Below are positions 52,865-64,000 of a stretch of DNA of 64,000 bases, piece after piece. This stretch comes from Candidatus Nanopelagicales bacterium (GTDB lineage: Bacteria > Actinomycetota > Actinomycetes > S36-B12 > UBA10799): contig JBAOHC010000021.1 of the NCBI GenBank assembly GCA_037046735.1, forward strand, positions 110,025 through 174,024, given 5' to 3'. The notes beneath the pieces are model-generated. The model made no database searches. It was not told where the DNA came from and worked only from the letters and a program-made list of their open reading frames with translations. The stretch's first letter is position 1; the number at the start of each line of letters is the position of its first letter. A program made the translations under genes and the position numbers.

Positions 52865-54202
52865 TCAGTGTGTCTCGGACTCCGCGACATACTTCGCGAA
52901 CTGCGCGTGGTCGGCGTCCACCACGTCGGCGTAGCGCAAGGCGAAGCGGGAGACCGCCTTGACGAAGGAATCGGAATCCCCGAGGTAGGCGTCGATGGCG
53001 ATCCGGTCGCCGGTGACGGCGTGCGCCCGGGCGAGCGTGAAACCGCACAGTCGCGCAAAACGAGGCAGACTGGCAGCCGGGGTGCGGGCGTACGCGGTAA
53101 CAACTGGGCGCAGTTGGCTGATGATGTAGTCGCGGTCCTGCCAGCGGCTGAATCCCAGCAACGGGTCCGGCTCGAACTGGATCAGTGCCTGTCCCAATGC
53201 GATCCGCCGGGCCTGATTGCCGCGGTGGCGGTATTCGGGCAGCACGAACGGCTGCAGCACCGACGGCCTCGCCTCCTTGACCTCAAGGGCCACCAACTCG
53301 TGTCGGCGGGTGCCTTGCAACAGCACGATGAAGCACCGCAGACCGACGTCCGAGACACCCCGCACGAGCATCGCGATGTCCGCGATCCGGTACTCGGTGA
53401 GCATCTGCTGCACCTCCGGACTCACAGAGGTCGCATATCCGCTCATGATCGCGATCATCCCGTCATGCAACGTCGCGGCATCCTGTTCGCTGAGCCACTG
53501 GGTGAGCGGCTGGATCGGGCCGCCGAAACGCAGTTGGGTCTCGTCCTCGAACATGTCGGAATAGAGCATGGGTTCGTCGGGGAAGGCGAGGTCTTTGGTG
53601 CGGCGATCGCCCTTGGCGACCGCTCTGGCCACCTCCCCCTCCGGGACTCCGGCGAACCAGAGGTCGAGCCGGTCCTGGTCAGCCGCCCAGGCGATACCGC
53701 GCCGGTAGCCCTCCACGGATGCCCGTGCGACCGCTCGCTGATCCTTAGCCGCAGCACCGGCCGCGCGTGCGGCCAGCACCAGGCCGGTACTCATCCGCTT
53801 GACGTCCCACTCCCAGGGCGCCCGCAGAGTCTCGTAGAAGGAGCCCACCTCGAAGACGGGTTCGCCGTGCGGAGGCCGGAAGTAGCCGAACGTGAACGCG
53901 TCGACGTCTCCGCAGGCCTGCACGTTGATCTCCGAGACGGGCGTCACAGAGAGGTCGGCGGCCATGACCACATCCGCGCCCCGGAAGTAGGAATGGGCGT
54001 CGGTTGCCATCCGCTCATGGCGCAGTGGGATCAATGAGGCAAGCCGGTCCTGGTCCTGTTCGAGCACGAGCCGCAGGGGGTCCGGGCGCACTTGCGACCG
54101 GTAAAGGTCAGCGTGAGCGTCGTGGGGAACACGGTTGCGCGCATCCAACCCGCGCTGGATCCGCTCGTCGAGGGAGCCGGCGGTCTTCAGCGCTTGCCAC
54201 AT
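52865..54202 (-). CDS. DUF2252 domain protein
   Basis: Internal ATG 54202. LIPLRHERMATDAHSYFRGADVVMAADL...NVQACGDVDAFTFGYF... About 445 aa, typical for the family. Confidence 0.8.
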   Translation of the reverse strand: MWQALKTAGSLDERIQRGLDARNRVPHDAHADLYRSQVRPDPLRLVLEQDQDRLASLIPLRHERMATDAHSYFRGADVVMAADLSVTPVSEINVQACGDVDAFTFGYFRPPHGEPVFEVGSFYETLRAPWEWDVKRMSTGLVLAARAAGAAAKDQRAVARASVEGYRRGIAWAADQDRLDLWFAGVPEGEVARAVAKGDRRTKDLAFPDEPMLYSDMFEDETQLRFGGPIQPLTQWLSEQDAATLHDGMIAIMSGYATSVSPEVQQMLTEYRIADIAMLVRGVSDVGLRCFIVLLQGTRRHELVALEVKEARPSVLQPFVLPEYRHRGNQARRIALGQALIQFEPDPLLGFSRWQDRDYIISQLRPVVTAYARTPAASLPRFARLCGFTLARAHAVTGDRIAIDAYLGDSDSFVKAVSRFALRYADVVDADHAQFAKYVAESETH

Positions 54203-54218
54203 GGCACGAGTGTACGGA

Positions 54219-55178
54219 TTACTCGTAGTTCCAGGCTTCCCAGGCGCTGGCCACCATATCGTGCAGGTCCTTGCTGGCCGTCCAGCCGAGCTCGTCCTGA
54301 ATCTTGTCCACCAGGGCCACCAGTTGGGCAGGATCACCGGGGCGGCGCGCGGCGATCTGCGCCTCCGCGTCACGGCCGAGCACGGCACTGACCGCATCGA
54401 TCACTTCGATGACCGAGACCCCCTGTCCGCGACCGACGTTGTACACGGTGCCCACCGTTTCACCCTCGCAACGAGCCGCCGCGGCGACGTGGGCGTCGGC
54501 CAGGTCGCTGACGTGGATGTAGTCGCGGATGCAGGACCCGTCCGGGGTGGGGTAGTCGTCGCCGAACACCTGCGGGCGCTGACCGGTGGTCAACGCCCGG
54601 TAGACCATGGGAATCAAATTGAAGACGCTGGTGTCGCCCAGATCGGGGGATCCGGCTCCCGCCACGTTGAAGTACCGCAGAGAGATCCAGGACAGGTCAC
54701 GGTTGACCGCGGCGTTGGACGTGATCCATTCGCCCACGACCTTGGTCTGGCCGTAAGGGGACTCGGGATTGCGCGAAGCATCTTCGGCGACGAACTGCGC
54801 GGCTGGCGTCCCATAGACAGCTGCGGACGACGAGTAGACGAAACAGCGTGTGCCGACCTCGGCCATGGCCTCTAGCAGCGACAGCATGCCGTCGACGTTC
54901 TCGCGGTAGTAGTACTCGGGTCGCTCCACCGACTCCCCGACAGCCTTCTTGGCGGCCAGATGCACCACGCCGGTGACGTCGTATTCGCGCAGAGCCGCTG
55001 CCACGACGGCGCGATCAGCCACGTTGGCCTGCACGAGCGGCACCCCCTTCGGCACCTTTCGCGCGAGTCCTGTGGACAGGTCGTCCAGGACCACCACATC
55101 GCGGCCGCTGGCCTGCAGGGCGCGCAGCACGTGGGCGCCGATGTAGCCGGCACCTCCAGTGAGTAGCCAGGTCGTCAT
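54219..55178 (-). CDS. galE: UDP-glucose 4-epimerase
   Basis: LLTGGAGYIGAHV, SSSAAVYG, YGQTK. ATGA overlap with the purC stop. Confidence 0.9.
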   Translation of the reverse strand: MTTWLLTGGAGYIGAHVLRALQASGRDVVVLDDLSTGLARKVPKGVPLVQANVADRAVVAAALREYDVTGVVHLAAKKAVGESVERPEYYYRENVDGMLSLLEAMAEVGTRCFVYSSSAAVYGTPAAQFVAEDASRNPESPYGQTKVVGEWITSNAAVNRDLSWISLRYFNVAGAGSPDLGDTSVFNLIPMVYRALTTGQRPQVFGDDYPTPDGSCIRDYIHVSDLADAHVAAAARCEGETVGTVYNVGRGQGVSVIEVIDAVSAVLGRDAEAQIAARRPGDPAQLVALVDKIQDELGWTASKDLHDMVASAWEAWNYE

Positions 55179-56038
55179 GCGAACTCCCTTCCCGTCAGAG
55201 TCTCGTAGGCCGCGATGTACTTGGCGCGGGTGTGCGCCACCACGTCTTGCGGCAGCGCTGGCGGGGGCTCGTCGCCCGCTGGGTCCCAGCCGGATTCGTT
55301 TCGCAGCCAGTCACGCACGAACTGCTTGTCGAAACTCGGCGGCGCTGACCCCTCGACCCACGTCGTCGCCTCCCAGAACCGCGACGAGTCGGGGGTCAGC
55401 ACCTCATCGCCCAGCACGATGGAGCCGTCGGCGCGCACGCCGAACTCGAACTTGGTGTCGGCCACGATGATCCCGCGCTCCGCGGCGATCGAGCGTGCCC
55501 GATCGTAGATTGCCAGGGACATATCCCGGATCCGTTCGGCCCGTTGCTTGCCGACCCGCTCAACGGCCCCGGTGAAGTCAATGTTCTCGTCGTGATCCCC
55601 GATGGCGGCCTTCGTGGCTGGGGTGAAGACCGGCTCGGGCAGGCGCTGCGATTCCCGCAAGCCGGGCGGCAGGTCGATGCCGCATACAGCACCGGTCCTC
55701 TGGTAGTCGTTCCAGCCCGAACCGCTGAGGTACCCTCGTACAACACACTCGACAGCGAGCATGTCAAGGCGTTCGCAGATGACTGCGCGGCCAGCGACGG
55801 CATCGGGCACATCCGTGCTGATGATGTGATTGGGCACGAGGTCGTGCAGTTGGTCGAACCACCACAGCGACAGCTGGGTCAGTACGCGACCCTTGTCAGG
55901 AATCGGAGTGGGCAGAATCGCGTCGAAGGCGCTGATCCGGTCGGAGGCGACGAACAACAGCCGGTCGCCGTCGGTGTAGAGGTCGCGCACCTTGCCGGAA
56001 TAGACGTGCGTCCACCCGGGGATCGGATCAGTGCTCAC
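55175..56038 (-). CDS. purC: phosphoribosylaminoimidazole-succinocarboxamide synthase
   Basis: GTG start. YSGKVRDLY..., ASDRISAFD, ADTKFEFG, LTPDSSRFW. Confidence 0.95.
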   Translation of the reverse strand: MSTDPIPGWTHVYSGKVRDLYTDGDRLLFVASDRISAFDAILPTPIPDKGRVLTQLSLWWFDQLHDLVPNHIISTDVPDAVAGRAVICERLDMLAVECVVRGYLSGSGWNDYQRTGAVCGIDLPPGLRESQRLPEPVFTPATKAAIGDHDENIDFTGAVERVGKQRAERIRDMSLAIYDRARSIAAERGIIVADTKFEFGVRADGSIVLGDEVLTPDSSRFWEATTWVEGSAPPSFDKQFVRDWLRNESGWDPAGDEPPPALPQDVVAHTRAKYIAAYETLTGREFA

Positions 56039-56145
56039 TCGTTCACGCTAACGGGTCTGCTGTGCCCACGATCAGGCGTGTCCTGCGGCTGGGACGAAGA
56101 CACCCGACTTCGGCGCCGGATCCGGCTCTTTGGGGCACAGTGGTG

Positions 56146-56841
56146 ATGATGACCGCCAACCGTTTCGCCGCACTGGCCTGTGCTTTGTGGCTGGCCGCCG
56201 GTGCCCTCACCTTCTACATCGCGACCATTTCCGGCATCCCTGCTGTGGATCTCGCCTTGGCCCAACCGGCGCACGACCTGGCCGTGGCGAATCCCTGGCT
56301 GGTCTGGGTGGCACGGTTCTTCGCAGCGATGGGTTCGGGCTTCGTCCTCGCGCCTCTGACCGTGGGCGTTGTGGTCGCCTTGTGGCTGCGCGGACAGCGG
56401 TGGTGGGCGGTGTGGCTGGCAGCGGACGGGATCACCGGAATCGTCGTATCCCAGACGGTCAAACGTGTCGTCGACCGACAACGTCCCGCCTGGGACAACC
56501 CGCTGAACGAGTTGACCAGCCCGTCGTTCCCCAGCGGGCACAGCATGGCGGGGATCTACGGGTACCTGGCTTTCGGTGTCGTCGCGTGGTTCCTGGTCAA
56601 TCGCGCGTTCGGGACTGTGCTCATGGTCTTCGGTGTTCTGATGGGGCCCAGCCGGGTGTTCTTCGGGGTGCACTGGCCCACTGATGTCCTGGCGGGGTGG
56701 CTGTTCGCGGGTGCCTGCCTGTGCACCGTGACCGCCGTCTTGTGGTGGCGCTGGGGACCGCCTCCGACCGGGACGTCAGAGGTGCCCGTCGTGGGCGATA
56801 CGGCACCGCCTCTGGCAGCGAGCGGCGGGGCGCCCGACTGA
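56146..56841 (+). CDS. PAP2-family phosphatase (membrane)
   Basis: KRVVDRQRP, PSGHS, SRVFFGVHWPTDV (the three PAP2 motifs). The start could also be GTG 56143. Confidence 0.8.
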   Translation: MMTANRFAALACALWLAAGALTFYIATISGIPAVDLALAQPAHDLAVANPWLVWVARFFAAMGSGFVLAPLTVGVVVALWLRGQRWWAVWLAADGITGIVVSQTVKRVVDRQRPAWDNPLNELTSPSFPSGHSMAGIYGYLAFGVVAWFLVNRAFGTVLMVFGVLMGPSRVFFGVHWPTDVLAGWLFAGACLCTVTAVLWWRWGPPPTGTSEVPVVGDTAPPLAASGGAPD

Positions 56842-57084
56842 CCAATCGGTGACGGTGCTCGCTGACGATCCGACTCGAGGCAACCTCGCTGGTCGTGCAT
56901 CCGCTCGCCTGTGGGCGCGTCACCGCCTGCCCTCAACACCATGTTCACGTCCTTCCTGGGCGGATTGACGTTCTTCACATTGGTGGTGGCACACGCGACC
57001 TTCTGCATCGTGGTGGTGTTTGCGGCCAGCGTCACCTGGTTCCTCCCGGCGGTCGTCTGGGACGAACCCGGCCAACGGCTCAGG

Positions 57085-58498
57085 TCAGAGGATGGCCCCG
57101 GGACTGTAGTCGGCCGCTCGCGGATGCTCGGCAGCAAGAAGAGCCACCCGCTCAACCACCACACCCACCTGCGCCCGTGCCGCACCCGTGAACTCCAGCG
57201 GCTGCGCCATCAAGGCCTCCAAGTCGCCTAGATCAAGGGGCAAGCGGTCATCGGCGGCGAGGCGCTGCAGGAGTCCCGGATCCTTACCCGTGGTACGCAT
57301 GTCCAAGGCTGCGGCGACCGCGTTGTCCTTGATCACCTCGTGCGCGGTCTCTCGGCCCACCCCGCTGCGCACGGCGGCCATCAAGATCTTCGTGGTCGCC
57401 AGGAACGGCAGGTACTTGTGCAACTCGCGCTCCACGACGGCCTCGAAAACACCGAACTCATCGAGGACGGTGAGCATGGTCTCGAGCATCCCGTCGATCG
57501 CGAAGAACGCGTCGGGAAGCATGACCCGGCGCACCACCGAGCAGTACACGTCCCCCTCGTTCCACTGCGAGCCCGCGAGGTCTGAGGCCATCGTCTGGTA
57601 CCCGCGCAGGAGCACCATGAAGCCGTTGACCCGCTCGCACGAGCGCGTGTTCATCTTGTGCGGCATCGCGCTCGATCCCACTTGGCCCTGCTGGAAACCC
57701 TCTGTGACCAGGTCATGACCGGCCATCAGCCGGATCGTTGTGGCCAGACTCGACGGTCCGGCTGCCACCTGTAGCAACGCCGAGAGCACCTCATAGTCAA
57801 AACTGCGCGGGTAGATCTGCCCGACACTGGTGAGAACCCGTTCAAAGCCCAGATGCCCGGCCACGCGCCGCTCCAGCTGCGCCAGCGCCTCGGGCGACCC
57901 CAACAGATCGAGCATGTCCTGAGCAGTGCCCACTGGCCCCTTGATCCCGCGAAGCGGGTAGTCCTCCAGCAGGTGCTGCAACCGCTCGTAGGCGATCAGA
58001 ACCTCATCGGCGGCCGTGGCGAACCGCTTGCCCAGCGTCGTGGTCTGAGCGGCGACATTGTGCGATCGGCCGGTCAGTGCGACCTCGTTGTACTGCGCCG
58101 GCGAGATGCCCGAGTCGTGCCAGCAGGGCAACGGTCTTGTCACGCACCAGCAGCAGGGACTGCCGGATCTGCATCTGCTCCACGTTCTCGGTGAGGTCGC
58201 GGCTGGTCATGCCCTTGTGGATCTGTTCGTGGCCGGCCAACGCGCTGAACTCGTCGATGCGCGCCTTGACGTCGTGGCGGCTGATGCGCTCGCGCGCAGC
58301 GATGGAATCCAGGTCCACCTGATCGATGACCGCCCGGTAGTCGGCCAGCGCATCTGCGGGAACCTCCACCCCGAGGTCCGCCTGAGCCTGCAGCACGGCC
58401 AGCCACAGTTCCCGCTCAGCCACGATCTTGTTCTGCGCTGACCAGATGTGCTGCATCTGCGGGGACGCGTAGCGGTTCGCCAGGACGTTGGGGATCAT
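57085..58498 (-). pseudogene. purB: adenylosuccinate lyase PurB interrupted by a single-base frameshift (or assembly error)
   Basis: ORF 58004..58498 carries the N-terminus (MIPNVLANRYASPQMQHIW...LVRDKTVALLARLG). ORF 57085..58143 carries the rest (ISPAQYNEVALTGRSHNVAAQTTTLGKRFA...SSAMPHKMNTRSCERV...YSPGAIL). The frames differ by 1 and the total span is 1414 nt (3n+1). They join at a GGG run (plus-strand ccc 58109-58111). Confidence 0.85.
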
Positions 58499-61156: not shown

Positions 61157-62830
61157 TCAGCCGTGGGCGTCCTGCTGGTAGGCGGCCACCACCTCGTCGA
61201 AGTCCGCGAAGATCCGGTCCTGGGTGAAGTCCGCGGTGAGGCCCAGAGTCTTCATGCTGTGCAGCAGGGAGGGATCGGCGCCCATGATGCCGAAGTGCGC
61301 GGAATGGGCGTGGACATAGTCGATCAGACCCTTGACACTGATGGCCGCCGAATAGTCGATGTCGGTGACGCTCGAGCAGTCCAACACCAGCCATCGCACC
61401 GGGTCCGGCGCCGAGGAGAAGACCGCCTCGACGGCGTCGACGAAGCGGTTGGCGTTGGCGTAGAAGAGTTCGCTGTCGTACCTGAACACGATCAGCCCGG
61501 GCATCGTCTGGGCGCCTGGTTTGGCGCTGCCGAAGACTGGTGCGTCGGCGGCCTCTTTGATCACGAAGGACTTGGGGGTGTACTGGCGCTGGACCAGCCA
61601 GATGACACTCATCACGATCGCCAGAATGATGCCCTCCTCCACGCCGATCGCGCAGACCACCGCGGCCGTGACGATCGCGATGACTGCCTCACCACGGCGC
61701 TCCTGCCAGATCCGGCGCAGGCCCACGATGTCGACGAGGTCGATGCCGATGAGGAAGACGATGGCGCCCAGAACGGCCTTCGGCATGTCCGCGAGCAAGC
61801 TGGTCAGGAACAGCACCACGATGAGGACGACAGCGGACATGGTGATGTTGGCGACCTGCGTGCGGCCCTTGAGTTCGTCGAGAATCTGGGTCTTCGTGGG
61901 GCTGCCGTTGACCACGAACGTGCCGGACATCCCAGCCGCGAGGTTGGCGCCCGACAAACCGACGATGTCGCGGTTGACATCGACCTTCTGCCCATGGCGC
62001 ATGGCGAAGGACCGTGACGTGGCCGCTGACTGGGCGATGATGAGGATGAAACACGAGAAGGCCACCCCGACGCAGTCACCGAGGGCGGACATCTCGATGC
62101 CCTGCGGCCAGCCGAGGGGCGGGAAACCACCTTGTACCTCGCCCACCACGGCAACACCCTTGGCCGAGGCGTTGATGGCTGCCGAGACGATGATGGACAG
62201 TACGACCGCGACGATGGCCCCTGGAACGACTGGCAGGAACTTCTTGAAACCGAGGATGATGATCAGCGTTCCTGCCGCGAAGGCCGCTGTGAGCCAGTCG
62301 ATGGATCCCAGATTGGTGAGCAGGCTCCACTGCTGCTCCAGCCAGGAGCCGGTGCCCTTCGGGATCCCGAGCATGTCCGGCAGCTGACCGGTGAAGACCT
62401 GCACCCCGACACCGGTGAGGAAGCCGATGAGCACCGAGGCGCTGAGGAAGTCACCCAGGAATCCCAGCCGTGCGACCCGGGCTATCAGCAGCATCGCAGC
62501 ACAGAGGATCGCGATGAAGGAGGTGTACGCCAGCCACAGATCTGAGTAGGGGGTGAGCCCGGAGACCGTCATGCCGGCCAGCCCCGCCGCCAGGATGGCC
62601 GCGGTGGCGGAGTCGGCACCCACCACCAGCAGCCGCGACGATCCGAGCAACGCGAACAGCAGTGTCGGGAAGATGACGGTGTACAGGCCGGTGACGATGG
62701 GGGTCTGCGCGATGCTGGTGTAACCCATGGTCTCCGGAATGGCGACCGCTGCCAAGGTCAAGCCGGCGACGATATCGGCCCGCAGCCATGGTTTCTGATA
62801 CCCGCGCAGGGTGATCGGGACGAGGTTCAC
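61157..62830 (-). CDS. SulP-family anion transporter with C-terminal STAS domain
   Basis: GTG 62830 within ORF 61157..63013. LRADIVAGLTLAAVAIPETMGYTSIAQ... The STAS tail reads LIVFRYDSELFYANANRFVD...LVLDCSSVTDIDYSA. Confidence 0.85.
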   Translation of the reverse strand: MNLVPITLRGYQKPWLRADIVAGLTLAAVAIPETMGYTSIAQTPIVTGLYTVIFPTLLFALLGSSRLLVVGADSATAAILAAGLAGMTVSGLTPYSDLWLAYTSFIAILCAAMLLIARVARLGFLGDFLSASVLIGFLTGVGVQVFTGQLPDMLGIPKGTGSWLEQQWSLLTNLGSIDWLTAAFAAGTLIIILGFKKFLPVVPGAIVAVVLSIIVSAAINASAKGVAVVGEVQGGFPPLGWPQGIEMSALGDCVGVAFSCFILIIAQSAATSRSFAMRHGQKVDVNRDIVGLSGANLAAGMSGTFVVNGSPTKTQILDELKGRTQVANITMSAVVLIVVLFLTSLLADMPKAVLGAIVFLIGIDLVDIVGLRRIWQERRGEAVIAIVTAAVVCAIGVEEGIILAIVMSVIWLVQRQYTPKSFVIKEAADAPVFGSAKPGAQTMPGLIVFRYDSELFYANANRFVDAVEAVFSSAPDPVRWLVLDCSSVTDIDYSAAISVKGLIDYVHAHSAHFGIMGADPSLLHSMKTLGLTADFTQDRIFADFDEVVAAYQQDAHG

Positions 62831-62888
62831 GGGTGCGATTGAACCAGGGTGAGAAGGGCGAAGCCTCCCCCAGAGCGGAGGAAGATCG

Positions 62889-63287
62889 TCAGTGACGGCC
62901 TTCGGCGATGAACCGCCGGCCGCTGAGTTCTGTGGGTTCGATGACCACGTACCGATTCTTGGGTGCCGTGTTCCAGGGGAACAGCGGCAGTCCCTCCGCA
63001 GAGTCCATCTCATCGTCGTGGGTCAGCACGCGCCCCAGACCTGCCATGACCACCGACCAGGCTTCGTTGGAGTCCTCGTTGTACCCATCGATCTCGAACG
63101 CCACTTCGTGGTGGGCCATGACGGAGGCCAGCTTGCTGCCCTCCGCCGTCTTGAAGTAGATCTCGCCCTCATGGACCACGTAGTTGATGGGGAAGATGTC
63201 AACCCGCCCCCCTACGACCGTCGCGAGCCGGCCGATCTGATTGGCCGCCAGCAATTCCCAGCACTGCTCATCGGAGAGAACATCCAT
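62889..63287 (-). CDS. pyridoxamine 5'-phosphate oxidase-family (FMN/F420-binding split-barrel) protein
   Basis: Internal ATG 63287. MDVLSDEQCWELLAANQIGRLATVVGGRVDIFPINYVVHEGEIYFKTAEGSKL. Confidence 0.8.
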   Translation of the reverse strand: MDVLSDEQCWELLAANQIGRLATVVGGRVDIFPINYVVHEGEIYFKTAEGSKLASVMAHHEVAFEIDGYNEDSNEAWSVVMAGLGRVLTHDDEMDSAEGLPLFPWNTAPKNRYVVIEPTELSGRRFIAEGRH

Positions 63288-63450
63288 ACCCGCATCCTTC
63301 CACGACCCGGTCCTGCCGGGCAGGTTGATCGTCGGGTTTGCGCCGATGGGAAGAATTTTCAGGCGTGGTGGATAGCGCCTTCTGGTGGCACTGCTGTTCT
63401 TCGTGGCAATCATTGCTGCGAAGTGACGGCAGCGGTTGGAGACCGAACTG

Positions 63451-63923
63451 CGGACTATTCCGGGGTTGTTACCCCGAAACACGGACTATTCCGGGGTTGT
63501 TGCCCCGAGAGACCGCAGAAACGGCCAACGACGTCGGAAAAGTGGCCCGCCGAAGTCGGTCGGGAGGGTCCGTTTACCCAGCGACGCAGGACACGACGAG
63601 CCTCAGCCCCACCACGGACTATTCCCGGGTTGTTGCCCCGAACCACGAACTATTCCGGGGTTGTTACCCCGAAACACCGCGAGAACGGCCAACAACATCG
63701 GAAAAGTAACGGCCGAAGTCGGCCGAGGAGCGTCCGTTCACACCCGCGACGCAGCGAACCCCCAGGACACGACGAACCTCACACCCACCACGGACTATTC
63801 CCGGGTTGTTGCCCCGAAACACCGCAAGAAAGGCAAACGACCCGGGAAAAGTGGCCCCGAGGGCTGCGGCAAAGGACCGCGGTCAAGCGGTCCTCTCGTC
63901 CGGCCGTCGCCGCGGACACGACA
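63451..63923. repeat. three-unit tandem array (about 165-175 bp units) built around a 30-nt hairpin motif present 5 times
   Basis: The motif CGGACTATTCCGGGGTTGTT(A/G)CCCCGAAAC starts at 63451, 63482, 63615, 63646 and 63791. Each unit continues ..accgc.aga.acggccaac.ac.tcggaaaagt..ggacacgac..cccacca. The sequence between motifs is homologous between units. Confidence 0.85.
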
Positions 63924-63953
63924 GATCCCCGGCCCCACCAGGGACCGGGGATC
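63924..63953 (-). terminator. GC-rich stem-loop, probable terminator of a minus-strand gene entering from the right edge
   Basis: gatccccggcccc / acca / gggaccggggatc forms a 13-bp stem with one C.A mismatch and a tetraloop. One minus-strand frame has a TAA at 63966..63964, just upstream in that orientation. No convincing U-tract. Confidence 0.4.
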
Positions 63954-64000
63954 CGACGAGTCCTTAGGCCCTCGTCCCAGCGCTGCGCAGGTCGTTGCAC

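Follow-up and report, generated by a model that had tools for sequence, protein, structure and literature searches.

The repeat array near the right-hand end of the DNA analysed here (a stretch of 64,000 nt, the window) is real. Repeats of this kind are ordinary in bacterial intergenic DNA, and we found no function specific to the array. We consider it probable, though well short of certain, that the array results from an old tandem triplication, now degenerate, of a 150-175-bp segment of the spacer between fba and the PNPOx-like/SulP operon, that it carries a REPIN/BIME-like palindrome, and that it most probably has no dedicated function. Protection of mRNA 3' ends is a role of REPs. By analogy, the hairpins added to the fba 3' region could at most serve as a read-through barrier or protect the 3' end of the mRNA.

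The local genes all lie on the minus strand, in the order fba, terminator hairpin, array, 163-nt leader, PNPOx-like gene, SulP, purA and purD. Genes beyond the window were read from contigs returned by an exact-protein look-up of the 132-aa PNPOx-like protein. The contigs with this locus came from wastewater and activated-sludge metagenomes (the organism is present, for example, in samples of PRJEB27054). Among named relatives, MAGs labelled Candidatus Nanopelagicales are nearest, with 80% protein identity. According to the gene calls on contigs L001-L006, the fba stop codon sits 676 nt upstream of the ATG of the PNPOx-like gene, which is immediately preceded by the ribosome-binding site GGAAGGA. 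The array follows the terminator of fba and precedes the leader of the co-directional PNPOx-like/SulP operon, and no regulator gene adjoins it. The initial annotation, which was made from the letters of the window alone, had placed the array upstream of the PNPOx-like start. This position is correct, but the relevant context is the 3' end of the co-directional fba gene. The features are as follows.

62889..63287, minus strand: PNPOx-like gene (Pyridox_ox_2, PF12900), 132 aa, ATG at 63287; followed by SulP
63288..63450, minus strand: leader/promoter region of the PNPOx-like/SulP operon, 163 nt, outside the repeat
63451..63614, minus strand: unit A, 164 nt, built like unit B; adjoins the leader of the PNPOx-like gene
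63451-63480: extra arm copy of unit A
63479..63547, minus strand: palindromic element of unit A; partner arm 63523-63543 and 30-mer arm 63482-63511; covariance model score 86.1 bits
63615..63790, minus strand: unit B, 176 nt; orphan terminator 3' arm, spacer, palindrome and extra 31-nt arm copy
63615-63644: extra arm copy of unit B
63643..63711, minus strand: palindromic element of unit B; partner arm 63687-63707 and 30-mer arm 63646-63675; covariance model score 87 bits
63710-63725: small GC hairpin CGGCCGACTTCGGCCG within the spacer of unit B
63791..63940, minus strand: unit C, 150 nt; terminator 3' arm, spacer and palindromic element; the putative ancestral unit
63788..63856, minus strand: palindromic element of unit C; partner arm 63832-63852 and 30-mer arm 63791-63820; covariance model score 88.4 bits
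63874-63893: spacer hairpin of unit C, GGACCGC-GGTCAA-GCGGTCC
63914..63963, minus strand: fba terminator-type hairpin, 23-nt arms, 4-nt loop, no U-tract
63964..64000, minus strand: 3' end of fba (class II fructose-bisphosphate aldolase, PF01116), stop codon TAA at 63966-63964

The 30-mer CGGACTATTCCGGGGTTGTTRCCCCGAAAC was found at 63451, 63482, 63615, 63646 and 63791, with zero to two mismatches in each of the five copies, and was never found in 100 dinucleotide shuffles (0 expected vs 5 observed). Tandem Repeats Finder detected 2.2 copies of a 164-nt period at 63451-63822 (82% matches, score 483) and, nested within it, a 31-nt duplication at 63611-63677. Alignment resolved three homologous units of 164, 176 and 150 nt, with pairwise identities of 80% (A-B), 72% (A-C) and 70% (B-C). 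On the plus strand, the common 3' end of the three units is GGACACGAC..CCCACCA, and this end of unit C is the left arm of a stem-loop with 23-nt arms (63914-63936/63941-63963), that is, of the fba terminator-type hairpin. In the minus-strand fold, this hairpin has a perfect 15-bp core stem. The hairpin is conserved in contigs L007 and L075, and its 3' arm (63914-63940) doubles as the start of unit C.

In the minus-strand sense, the first part of every unit is an orphan copy of the fba terminator 3' arm, TGGTGGGG...GTCGTGTCC; a spacer that contains a small GC hairpin comes next, and then an imperfect palindrome of ~60 nt. Units A and B have an extra 31-nt copy of the distal palindrome arm after the palindrome. 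The orphan terminator arms have no 5' partner, which indicates that the duplicated segment started in the terminator loop. The five copies, the three units, their common end with its overlap with the terminal stem-loop, and amplification from the sequence next to a terminator had all been described in the initial annotation, and our analysis bore out each of them. The small CGGGG-loop-CCCCG hairpin that was also ascribed to every copy of the 30-mer is exact in three of the five, but the copies at 63615 and 63791 have CCCGGG instead and keep 4 bp of it.

The 30-mer is not the free-standing seed for which it had been taken. Each 30-mer is one arm of the ~60-nt imperfect palindrome, which is an inverted doublet of a motif of ~25-30 nt. 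In the minus-strand sense the palindrome reads ACTTTTCCG..GTTGG, ~22 nt and GGGGCAACAACCCCGGAATAGT. The arms are inverted with linkers of 22-25 nt, and the extra direct copies of an arm are spaced 31 nt. As an example of inverted arms, ACTATTCCCGGGTTGTT pairs with AACGACCCGGGAAAAGT over 17 nt with 88% complementarity at a distance of 25 nt. One strand of the motif has CGGACTATTC-CGGGG... and the other has ...CCCCG-GAATAGTCCG, and neither GTAG nor GTGG stands 5' of the stem.

The 30-mer alone folds as a small hairpin with a stem of 5-10 bp and a YAACAA loop (CGGGG-YAACAA-CCCCG). For the whole element, a long hairpin is the MFE fold in unit C, in contig L008 and at a second locus in contig L051 (-27 to -29 kcal/mol); the element of unit C forms a single long hairpin with an MFE of -29 kcal/mol. 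Units A and B and the element of L007 have degraded versions of the long stem. The covariance model of the element was trained on six elements. Over both loci, conservation within the family is highest in the core TTCCGGGGTTGTTG/CAACAACCCCGGAA, which has invariant columns.

The identical 676-nt spacer is present in six other contigs from separate samples, one of which is 901 kb long. In all, seven assemblies (NCBI and ENA) share the array without change, and L001 shows 0 mismatches over >4 kb around it. Assemblies that contain the locus include GCA_964268605.1 (contig CAXXYN010000036.1), GCA_029779995.1 and GCA_029780475.1. The initial annotation had raised the possibility of an assembly artefact. 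Short-read assemblies are often broken or inflated by repeats, and contig L008 starts exactly at an element, but the seven assemblies with the same spacer are independent, and the units differ from each other by 20-30% and are hence uniquely assemblable, so that no collapse is expected. An artefact or a chimeric join is hardly credible on these data. The identical spacer in six further assemblies shows that the array is real and stable in this population.

Gene calls are absent from the spacer on all of the contigs with the 676-nt spacer. A composite of the repeat translations was searched against 5.8 billion protein clusters, a search aimed at dispersed copies miscalled as ORFs, and gave no match at E<=10. 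The array is non-coding, in agreement with the initial view that it has no plausible coding frame. On the plus strand, two frames run without stops through the entire array.

We compared the same spacer in relatives. In sister lineages (89-95% nucleotide identity, 98-100% identity of the PNPOx-like protein), the spacer is 322 nt long and consists of the terminator, one unit and the leader; this arrangement was found in at least 10 contigs. In L007, this unit shares 85% identity with unit C vs 69% with units A and B. The single unit of the sister lineages is orthologous to unit C, and its closeness to C points to C as the ancestral copy. Units A and B share the doubled arm and the spacer type, which indicates that both come from one earlier duplicate. 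Outgroups with 72-84% identity of the PNPOx-like protein keep the fba->PNPOx synteny with spacers of 105-170 nt and a plain terminator, and the element is absent from these spacers.

The divergence between units (20-30%) is as large as that of the leader between lineages (20%); the leader of the PNPOx-like gene is 80% identical to that of L007 and of the same length class. This suggests that the duplications are old and that the array is not a fast-changing VNTR. Unit number, which had been proposed as a test of VNTR behaviour, does differ between lineages, with three units in the seven assemblies of one population and one unit in the lineages at 89-95% nucleotide identity, but no variation was seen within the population. 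A two-unit allele was not seen among the compared assemblies; L008 (98.4% gene identity, but a different leader) is cut at an element, and its homology begins ~52 nt upstream of the ATG of the PNPOx-like gene. The retention of units at 20-30% divergence is compatible with neutrality and also with selection.

Other lineages have different palindromic repeats at this position. A lineage at 92-93% protein identity has a CCCACGAATGRAGGC-type inverted-repeat block in the fba spacer (L077-L080 and L095). In a lineage at 85% (L096), the fba spacer contains two direct and two inverted copies of CGAGGGTCGCACCGTTGCCC/GGGCAACAACGCGACCCTCG, repeats that have GGGCAACAAC in common with the 30-mer motif. In all the DNA compared, the L096- and L077-type palindromes were found at their own locus only. 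The presence of different palindromic repeats in other lineages suggests that the fba spacer is a hot spot for such repeats.

The array may have grown in three steps, the order of which we infer from the unit comparison. The ancestral unit C would have been duplicated to give the ancestor of A and B, a 31-nt duplication of one arm would have followed in this ancestor, and the ancestor would then have been duplicated to give units A and B. The duplicated piece would have begun in the loop of the fba terminator hairpin and extended through the whole ~60-nt palindrome. Replication slippage or unequal recombination at hairpin-forming repeats is the likely mechanism, with putative GTCC microhomology at the junctions. 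The array sits in a neutral zone between the terminator and the leader of the next operon.

The palindrome is not confined to this spacer. Contig L051 has a complete element (78.7 bits, ~80% similar to the fba-spacer elements) at a second locus, between the pnp-pepM16-dapB operon and a convergent gene for a SpaA-like surface protein. In the same dapB/SpaA spacer, a complete element is also present in L082-87 and a variant with a 1-nt insertion (70.4 bits) in L089-91, which makes nine further contigs, with DapB 92-97% identical to that of L051. Several of the dapB-site contigs derive from wastewater samples that also yielded the sister-lineage fba contigs. The dapB-site element is absent in a group with 84% DapB identity. 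The elements of L051 and L082 are identical though their DapB proteins are only 92% identical, and this identity could mean that there is constraint on the element.

Further copies were sought in several ways. Elsewhere in the window, in the adjoining 10 kb, in related loci, in L001, L066 and L082 and in ~20 kb around dapB, no extra copies were detected with the covariance model, and ~100 kb of additional DNA yielded no further member of the family. None of the other ~55 gene spacers of the window contains the motif. Exact scans gave 0 matches, both for a 23-mer in species-representative genomes and for a 22-mer in JGI metagenomes and viral contigs. A looser 20-mer scan of metagenomes gave 35 matches, one true (L051) and 34 by chance without a partner arm, and the same scan of viral contigs gave 0 matches. 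The array had no blastn match among plasmids and phages. Nothing suggests a high copy number, and any dispersal or mobility of the family rests on two loci; the comparisons yielded no pair of empty and filled sites that shows clean boundaries or target duplications. As far as sequence comparison goes, the palindrome is a small, lineage-restricted extragenic family with at least two chromosomal loci, each in a narrow clade. The initial annotation had considered that the 30-mer might belong to a dispersed REP/MIRU-like family; a second locus does exist, but nothing points to many copies and the family is not a described one.

The architecture of the array appears REPIN/BIME-like and resembles the ordered REPIN clusters of Pseudomonas, whereas membership of the REP family proper is not established. 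The ordered clusters of Pseudomonas fluorescens SBW25 are tandem repeats of REPINs plus flanking sequence (Bertels & Rainey 2011, PMC3116915), and the largest of them contains four REPINs and one REP in >700 bp (PMC3116915). As in those clusters, two inverted, short, REP-like palindromic motifs and a spacer are predicted to form one long hairpin, and the extragenic doublet is tandemly repeated together with flanking sequence. In contrast, the SBW25 clusters consist of nearly identical copies from a family that has hundreds of members and is RAYT-linked. The units of the present array are 70-80% identical, its palindrome has two known loci and no GT[AG]G head, and its host is an uncultured actinobacterium and not a proteobacterium.

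Enterobacterial REP/BIME elements (Nunvar 2010, PMC2817692; Ton-Hoang 2012, PMC3333891) are similar in that short imperfect extragenic palindromes alternate in orientation within clusters, are separated by linkers, follow genes and terminators, and differ in cluster copy number between lineages. They are unlike the array in that its repeat unit (150-176 nt) contains a duplicated half-terminator of the host gene. REPs usually have >100 copies per genome and start with GTAG/GTGG (PMC2817692). The present family lacks the GT[AG]G head, and its copies at the two loci are ~80% alike.

Mycobacterial MIRU units are ~40-100 bp long, occupy ~40 dispersed loci and are variable between strains. MIRUs often carry small ORFs that overlap the stop and start codons of the flanking genes. 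Like MIRU/VNTR loci, the array is an actinobacterial intergenic tandem repeat within a gene cluster, is oriented with the genes and has a lineage-dependent unit number; unlike MIRUs, its units are 150-176 nt long, non-coding and palindrome-bearing, and they are invariant in seven assemblies. The element also resembles a MITE, in that it is small and non-coding, has terminal inverted repeats and occurs at more than one locus, but it is only ~60 nt long. An IS-derived MITE was rejected, because the DDE transposase region beside the dapB locus (L087) has no similarity to the arms.

These comparisons bear on whether the palindrome is a bona fide high-copy mobile element, that is, a RAYT-mobilised REPIN or an IS-mobilised MITE, that was actively inserted rather than passively duplicated. 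The inverted-doublet architecture, the extragenic position, the two loci in related genomes and the different palindromic families held by sister lineages in the same spacer would fit such an element, and tandem REPIN clusters are known (PMC3116915). However, the GT[AG]G head is missing, no target-site duplication is visible at either locus, no more copies occur in ~100 kb of non-ascertained DNA, a single one of the 35 metagenome matches was true, and the element and the IS beside the dapB locus have no termini in common. Moreover, host flanking sequence is included in the units, which argues for duplication and not for repeated insertion. We regard active mobilisation as very improbable. A wider reading, which we put forward tentatively and with more doubt than confidence, is that the array represents one locus of an undescribed REPIN/BIME-like system of uncultured Nanopelagicales-related wastewater Actinomycetota. 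CAACAA-loop inverted doublets would colonise post-terminator spacers, would be swapped for other palindromic families in sister lineages, and would capture terminator halves in tandem clusters.

The main rival to a neutral by-product is an array of RNA hairpins that insulates or stabilises the fba transcript, which we consider unlikely. The hairpins would be transcribed with the fba 3' UTR or with the 5' UTR of the PNPOx-like/SulP operon, and they would act as a multi-hairpin terminator, an insulator or a barrier to 3'->5' exonucleases that is strengthened by the extra units. The whole spacer has an MFE of -299 kcal/mol on the minus (sense) strand vs -245 kcal/mol on the plus strand (z -6.6 vs -4.3), so that the minus-strand RNA folds better than the plus-strand RNA and much better than shuffles. 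At both loci, the elements come after a terminator and in the same orientation relative to the upstream gene. One terminator-like site was detected, the small spacer hairpin at 63725-63710 with a T-rich run, against 0.8 expected by chance. REP elements reportedly bind proteins and have several roles in host-cell physiology (PMC2817692, PMC3686654). On the other side, the individual elements have no consistent strand preference in folding, so the difference in the whole-spacer fold is not good evidence for an RNA role; strand-specific RNA selection was rejected because the whole-region difference fails at the element level. A, B and L007 have degraded long stems, covariation is limited to one compensated pair among 14 stem pairs, and the palindromes have no U-tract. 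One unit suffices in the sister lineages, and none is present in the outgroups. The search of 62000-64000 against Rfam 15 at a permissive E value gave best matches of 18-21 bits vs gathering thresholds of 36-93 (E 0.5-2, best 0.54), so that no family is matched at its gathering threshold. Neither a tRNA nor a tmRNA was found, and the region contains no sigma-70-like promoter.

An array of protein-binding sites was also weighed. The 30-mers, spaced 31 bp as direct repeats and recurring every 164-176 bp, would serve as operators or nucleoid-protein sites. They would either control the PNPOx-like/SulP operon through its divergently placed promoter region or organise the local DNA. The core TTCCGGGGTTGTTG/CAACAACCCCGGAA, best conserved across both loci, and the 31-bp spacing of about three helical turns would fit this proposal, and BIMEs are known to bind several proteins (PMC2817692). 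However, the second locus lies between two convergent genes with no promoter to regulate, the array has no regulator gene beside it, and the other gene spacers of the window lack the motif. Sister lineages in which this operon and leader are found have one palindrome, and outgroups have none. We judge this proposal to be quite improbable. The initial annotation had offered a satellite-like repeat, an array of regulator sites or repeated small-RNA units. The first comes closest, but the other two found no support, because there is no Rfam match, almost no covariation, no consistent strand asymmetry and no sigma-70-like promoter.

Several known types of element were also tried and rejected. A riboswitch or leader of the PNPOx-like/SulP operon was dismissed because relatives with the same operon lack the element. 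The two tandem hairpins with 6-nt loops prompted comparison with ANTAR-type dual hexaloop targets. ANTAR targets have loops with an A1/G4 pattern; the loops here are YAACAA, and Rfam gave no match. The palindrome is not an intrinsic terminator, since its T/A runs lie inside the stem and no U-tract follows; only one small spacer hairpin (63725-63710) fits the terminator consensus. A CRISPR array was rejected because successive 30-mers are separated by 1 nt or by ~103-115 nt and the sequences between them are mutually homologous.

Taken as an old tandem triplication, the array matters little alone, but it shows how a spacer grows by stepwise tandem duplication of a half-terminator and a palindromic element. 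Uncultured activated-sludge actinobacteria are also shown to have lineage-specific REP-like palindromes with quick turnover at the same spacer. The unit number (one vs three) can be used as a strain or lineage marker for this wastewater organism, and the two stop-free plus-strand frames call for caution in annotation pipelines. The finding would have greater weight only if the palindromes formed a large family that has its own transposase, or if the hairpins acted as an insulator between fba and the PNPOx-like/SulP operon. REPIN-type biology would be extended to a phylum in which it is hardly documented if there is a cognate transposase or a host function such as transcript insulation.

The initial annotation had dismissed the open reading frames across the array as repeat-derived and without plausible coding capacity, and this assessment holds. 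Two of the three forward-strand frames carry no stop codon over the whole array (window 63430-63965), which accounts for such frames as the following:

63338-63709, + strand, repeat-derived open reading frame of 123 aa

A protein search with the repeat-derived frames of the array found no homologues, and they were called as genes on none of the contigs.

Comparison with other contigs revealed several discontinuities in the spacer between fba and the PNPOx-like gene and farther away. In contig L008, identity to the window is 98.4% downstream of a point 52 nt before the PNPOx-like ATG; upstream of that point the leader is very unlike that of the window and the element has diverged (L008:1-206 compared with window 63288-63560). 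The L008 contig also starts at the element, and this combination suggests either recombination with a breakpoint inside the leader or a contig broken off at the repeat during assembly. In contig L075 (positions 160-520), an fba end and terminator of the window type are joined to a single unit and leader of the type found in the sister lineages. Because its coverage is low (0.8x), L075 could be a recombinant that exists in nature or a chimera produced by assembly. Farther from the array, at window ~52900-58300, mosaic divergence was found between the window and the otherwise identical contig L001, together with matching parts of L002, L005, and L006, all assemblies with the same spacer. L001 shows 0 mismatches per 250 nt up to 4.5 kb away from the array, 5-18 in blocks beginning near window 58300, and 9-45 in blocks from ~56000 to ~52900, near which the comparison ends. 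This pattern points to recombination among strains or to chimerism of the MAG contigs.

The surroundings of the second family locus, the dapB/SpaA spacer, contained the following features:

L082:11200-11240 and L051:3483-3520, AT-richer, near-perfect palindrome adjoining the second family member
L087:9847-11196, DDE transposase (DDE_Tnp_1_4/DDE_Tnp_1), ~6 kb from the dapB-site element

The palindrome reads TGTG(C/G)AATATGGACA-N8-TGTCCATATTCCACA and looks like a candidate operator-type protein-binding site. The L087 transposase and the element arms were not similar in sequence.

Other palindromic blocks occupy the fba/PNPOx spacer in further lineages:

L077:386-528, also in L078, L079, L080, and L095, different inverted-repeat block (92-93% PNPOx-like protein identity)
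L096:182-304, nested palindromic block (85% PNPOx-like protein identity)

The L077-type block contains CACTCGTGGTCC.. and CCCACGAATGRAGGCGACACGCCG.. with its complement, in a lineage that lacks SulP and has purA directly after the PNPOx-like gene. The L096 block contains CGAGGGTCGCACCGTTGCCC twice in direct orientation and then twice in inverted form, as GGGCAACAACGCGACYCTCG, and the predicted folding energy of its spacer is -145 kcal/mol. The GGGCAACAAC core is common to the L096 block and the motif of the window, so this block may represent a sister family.
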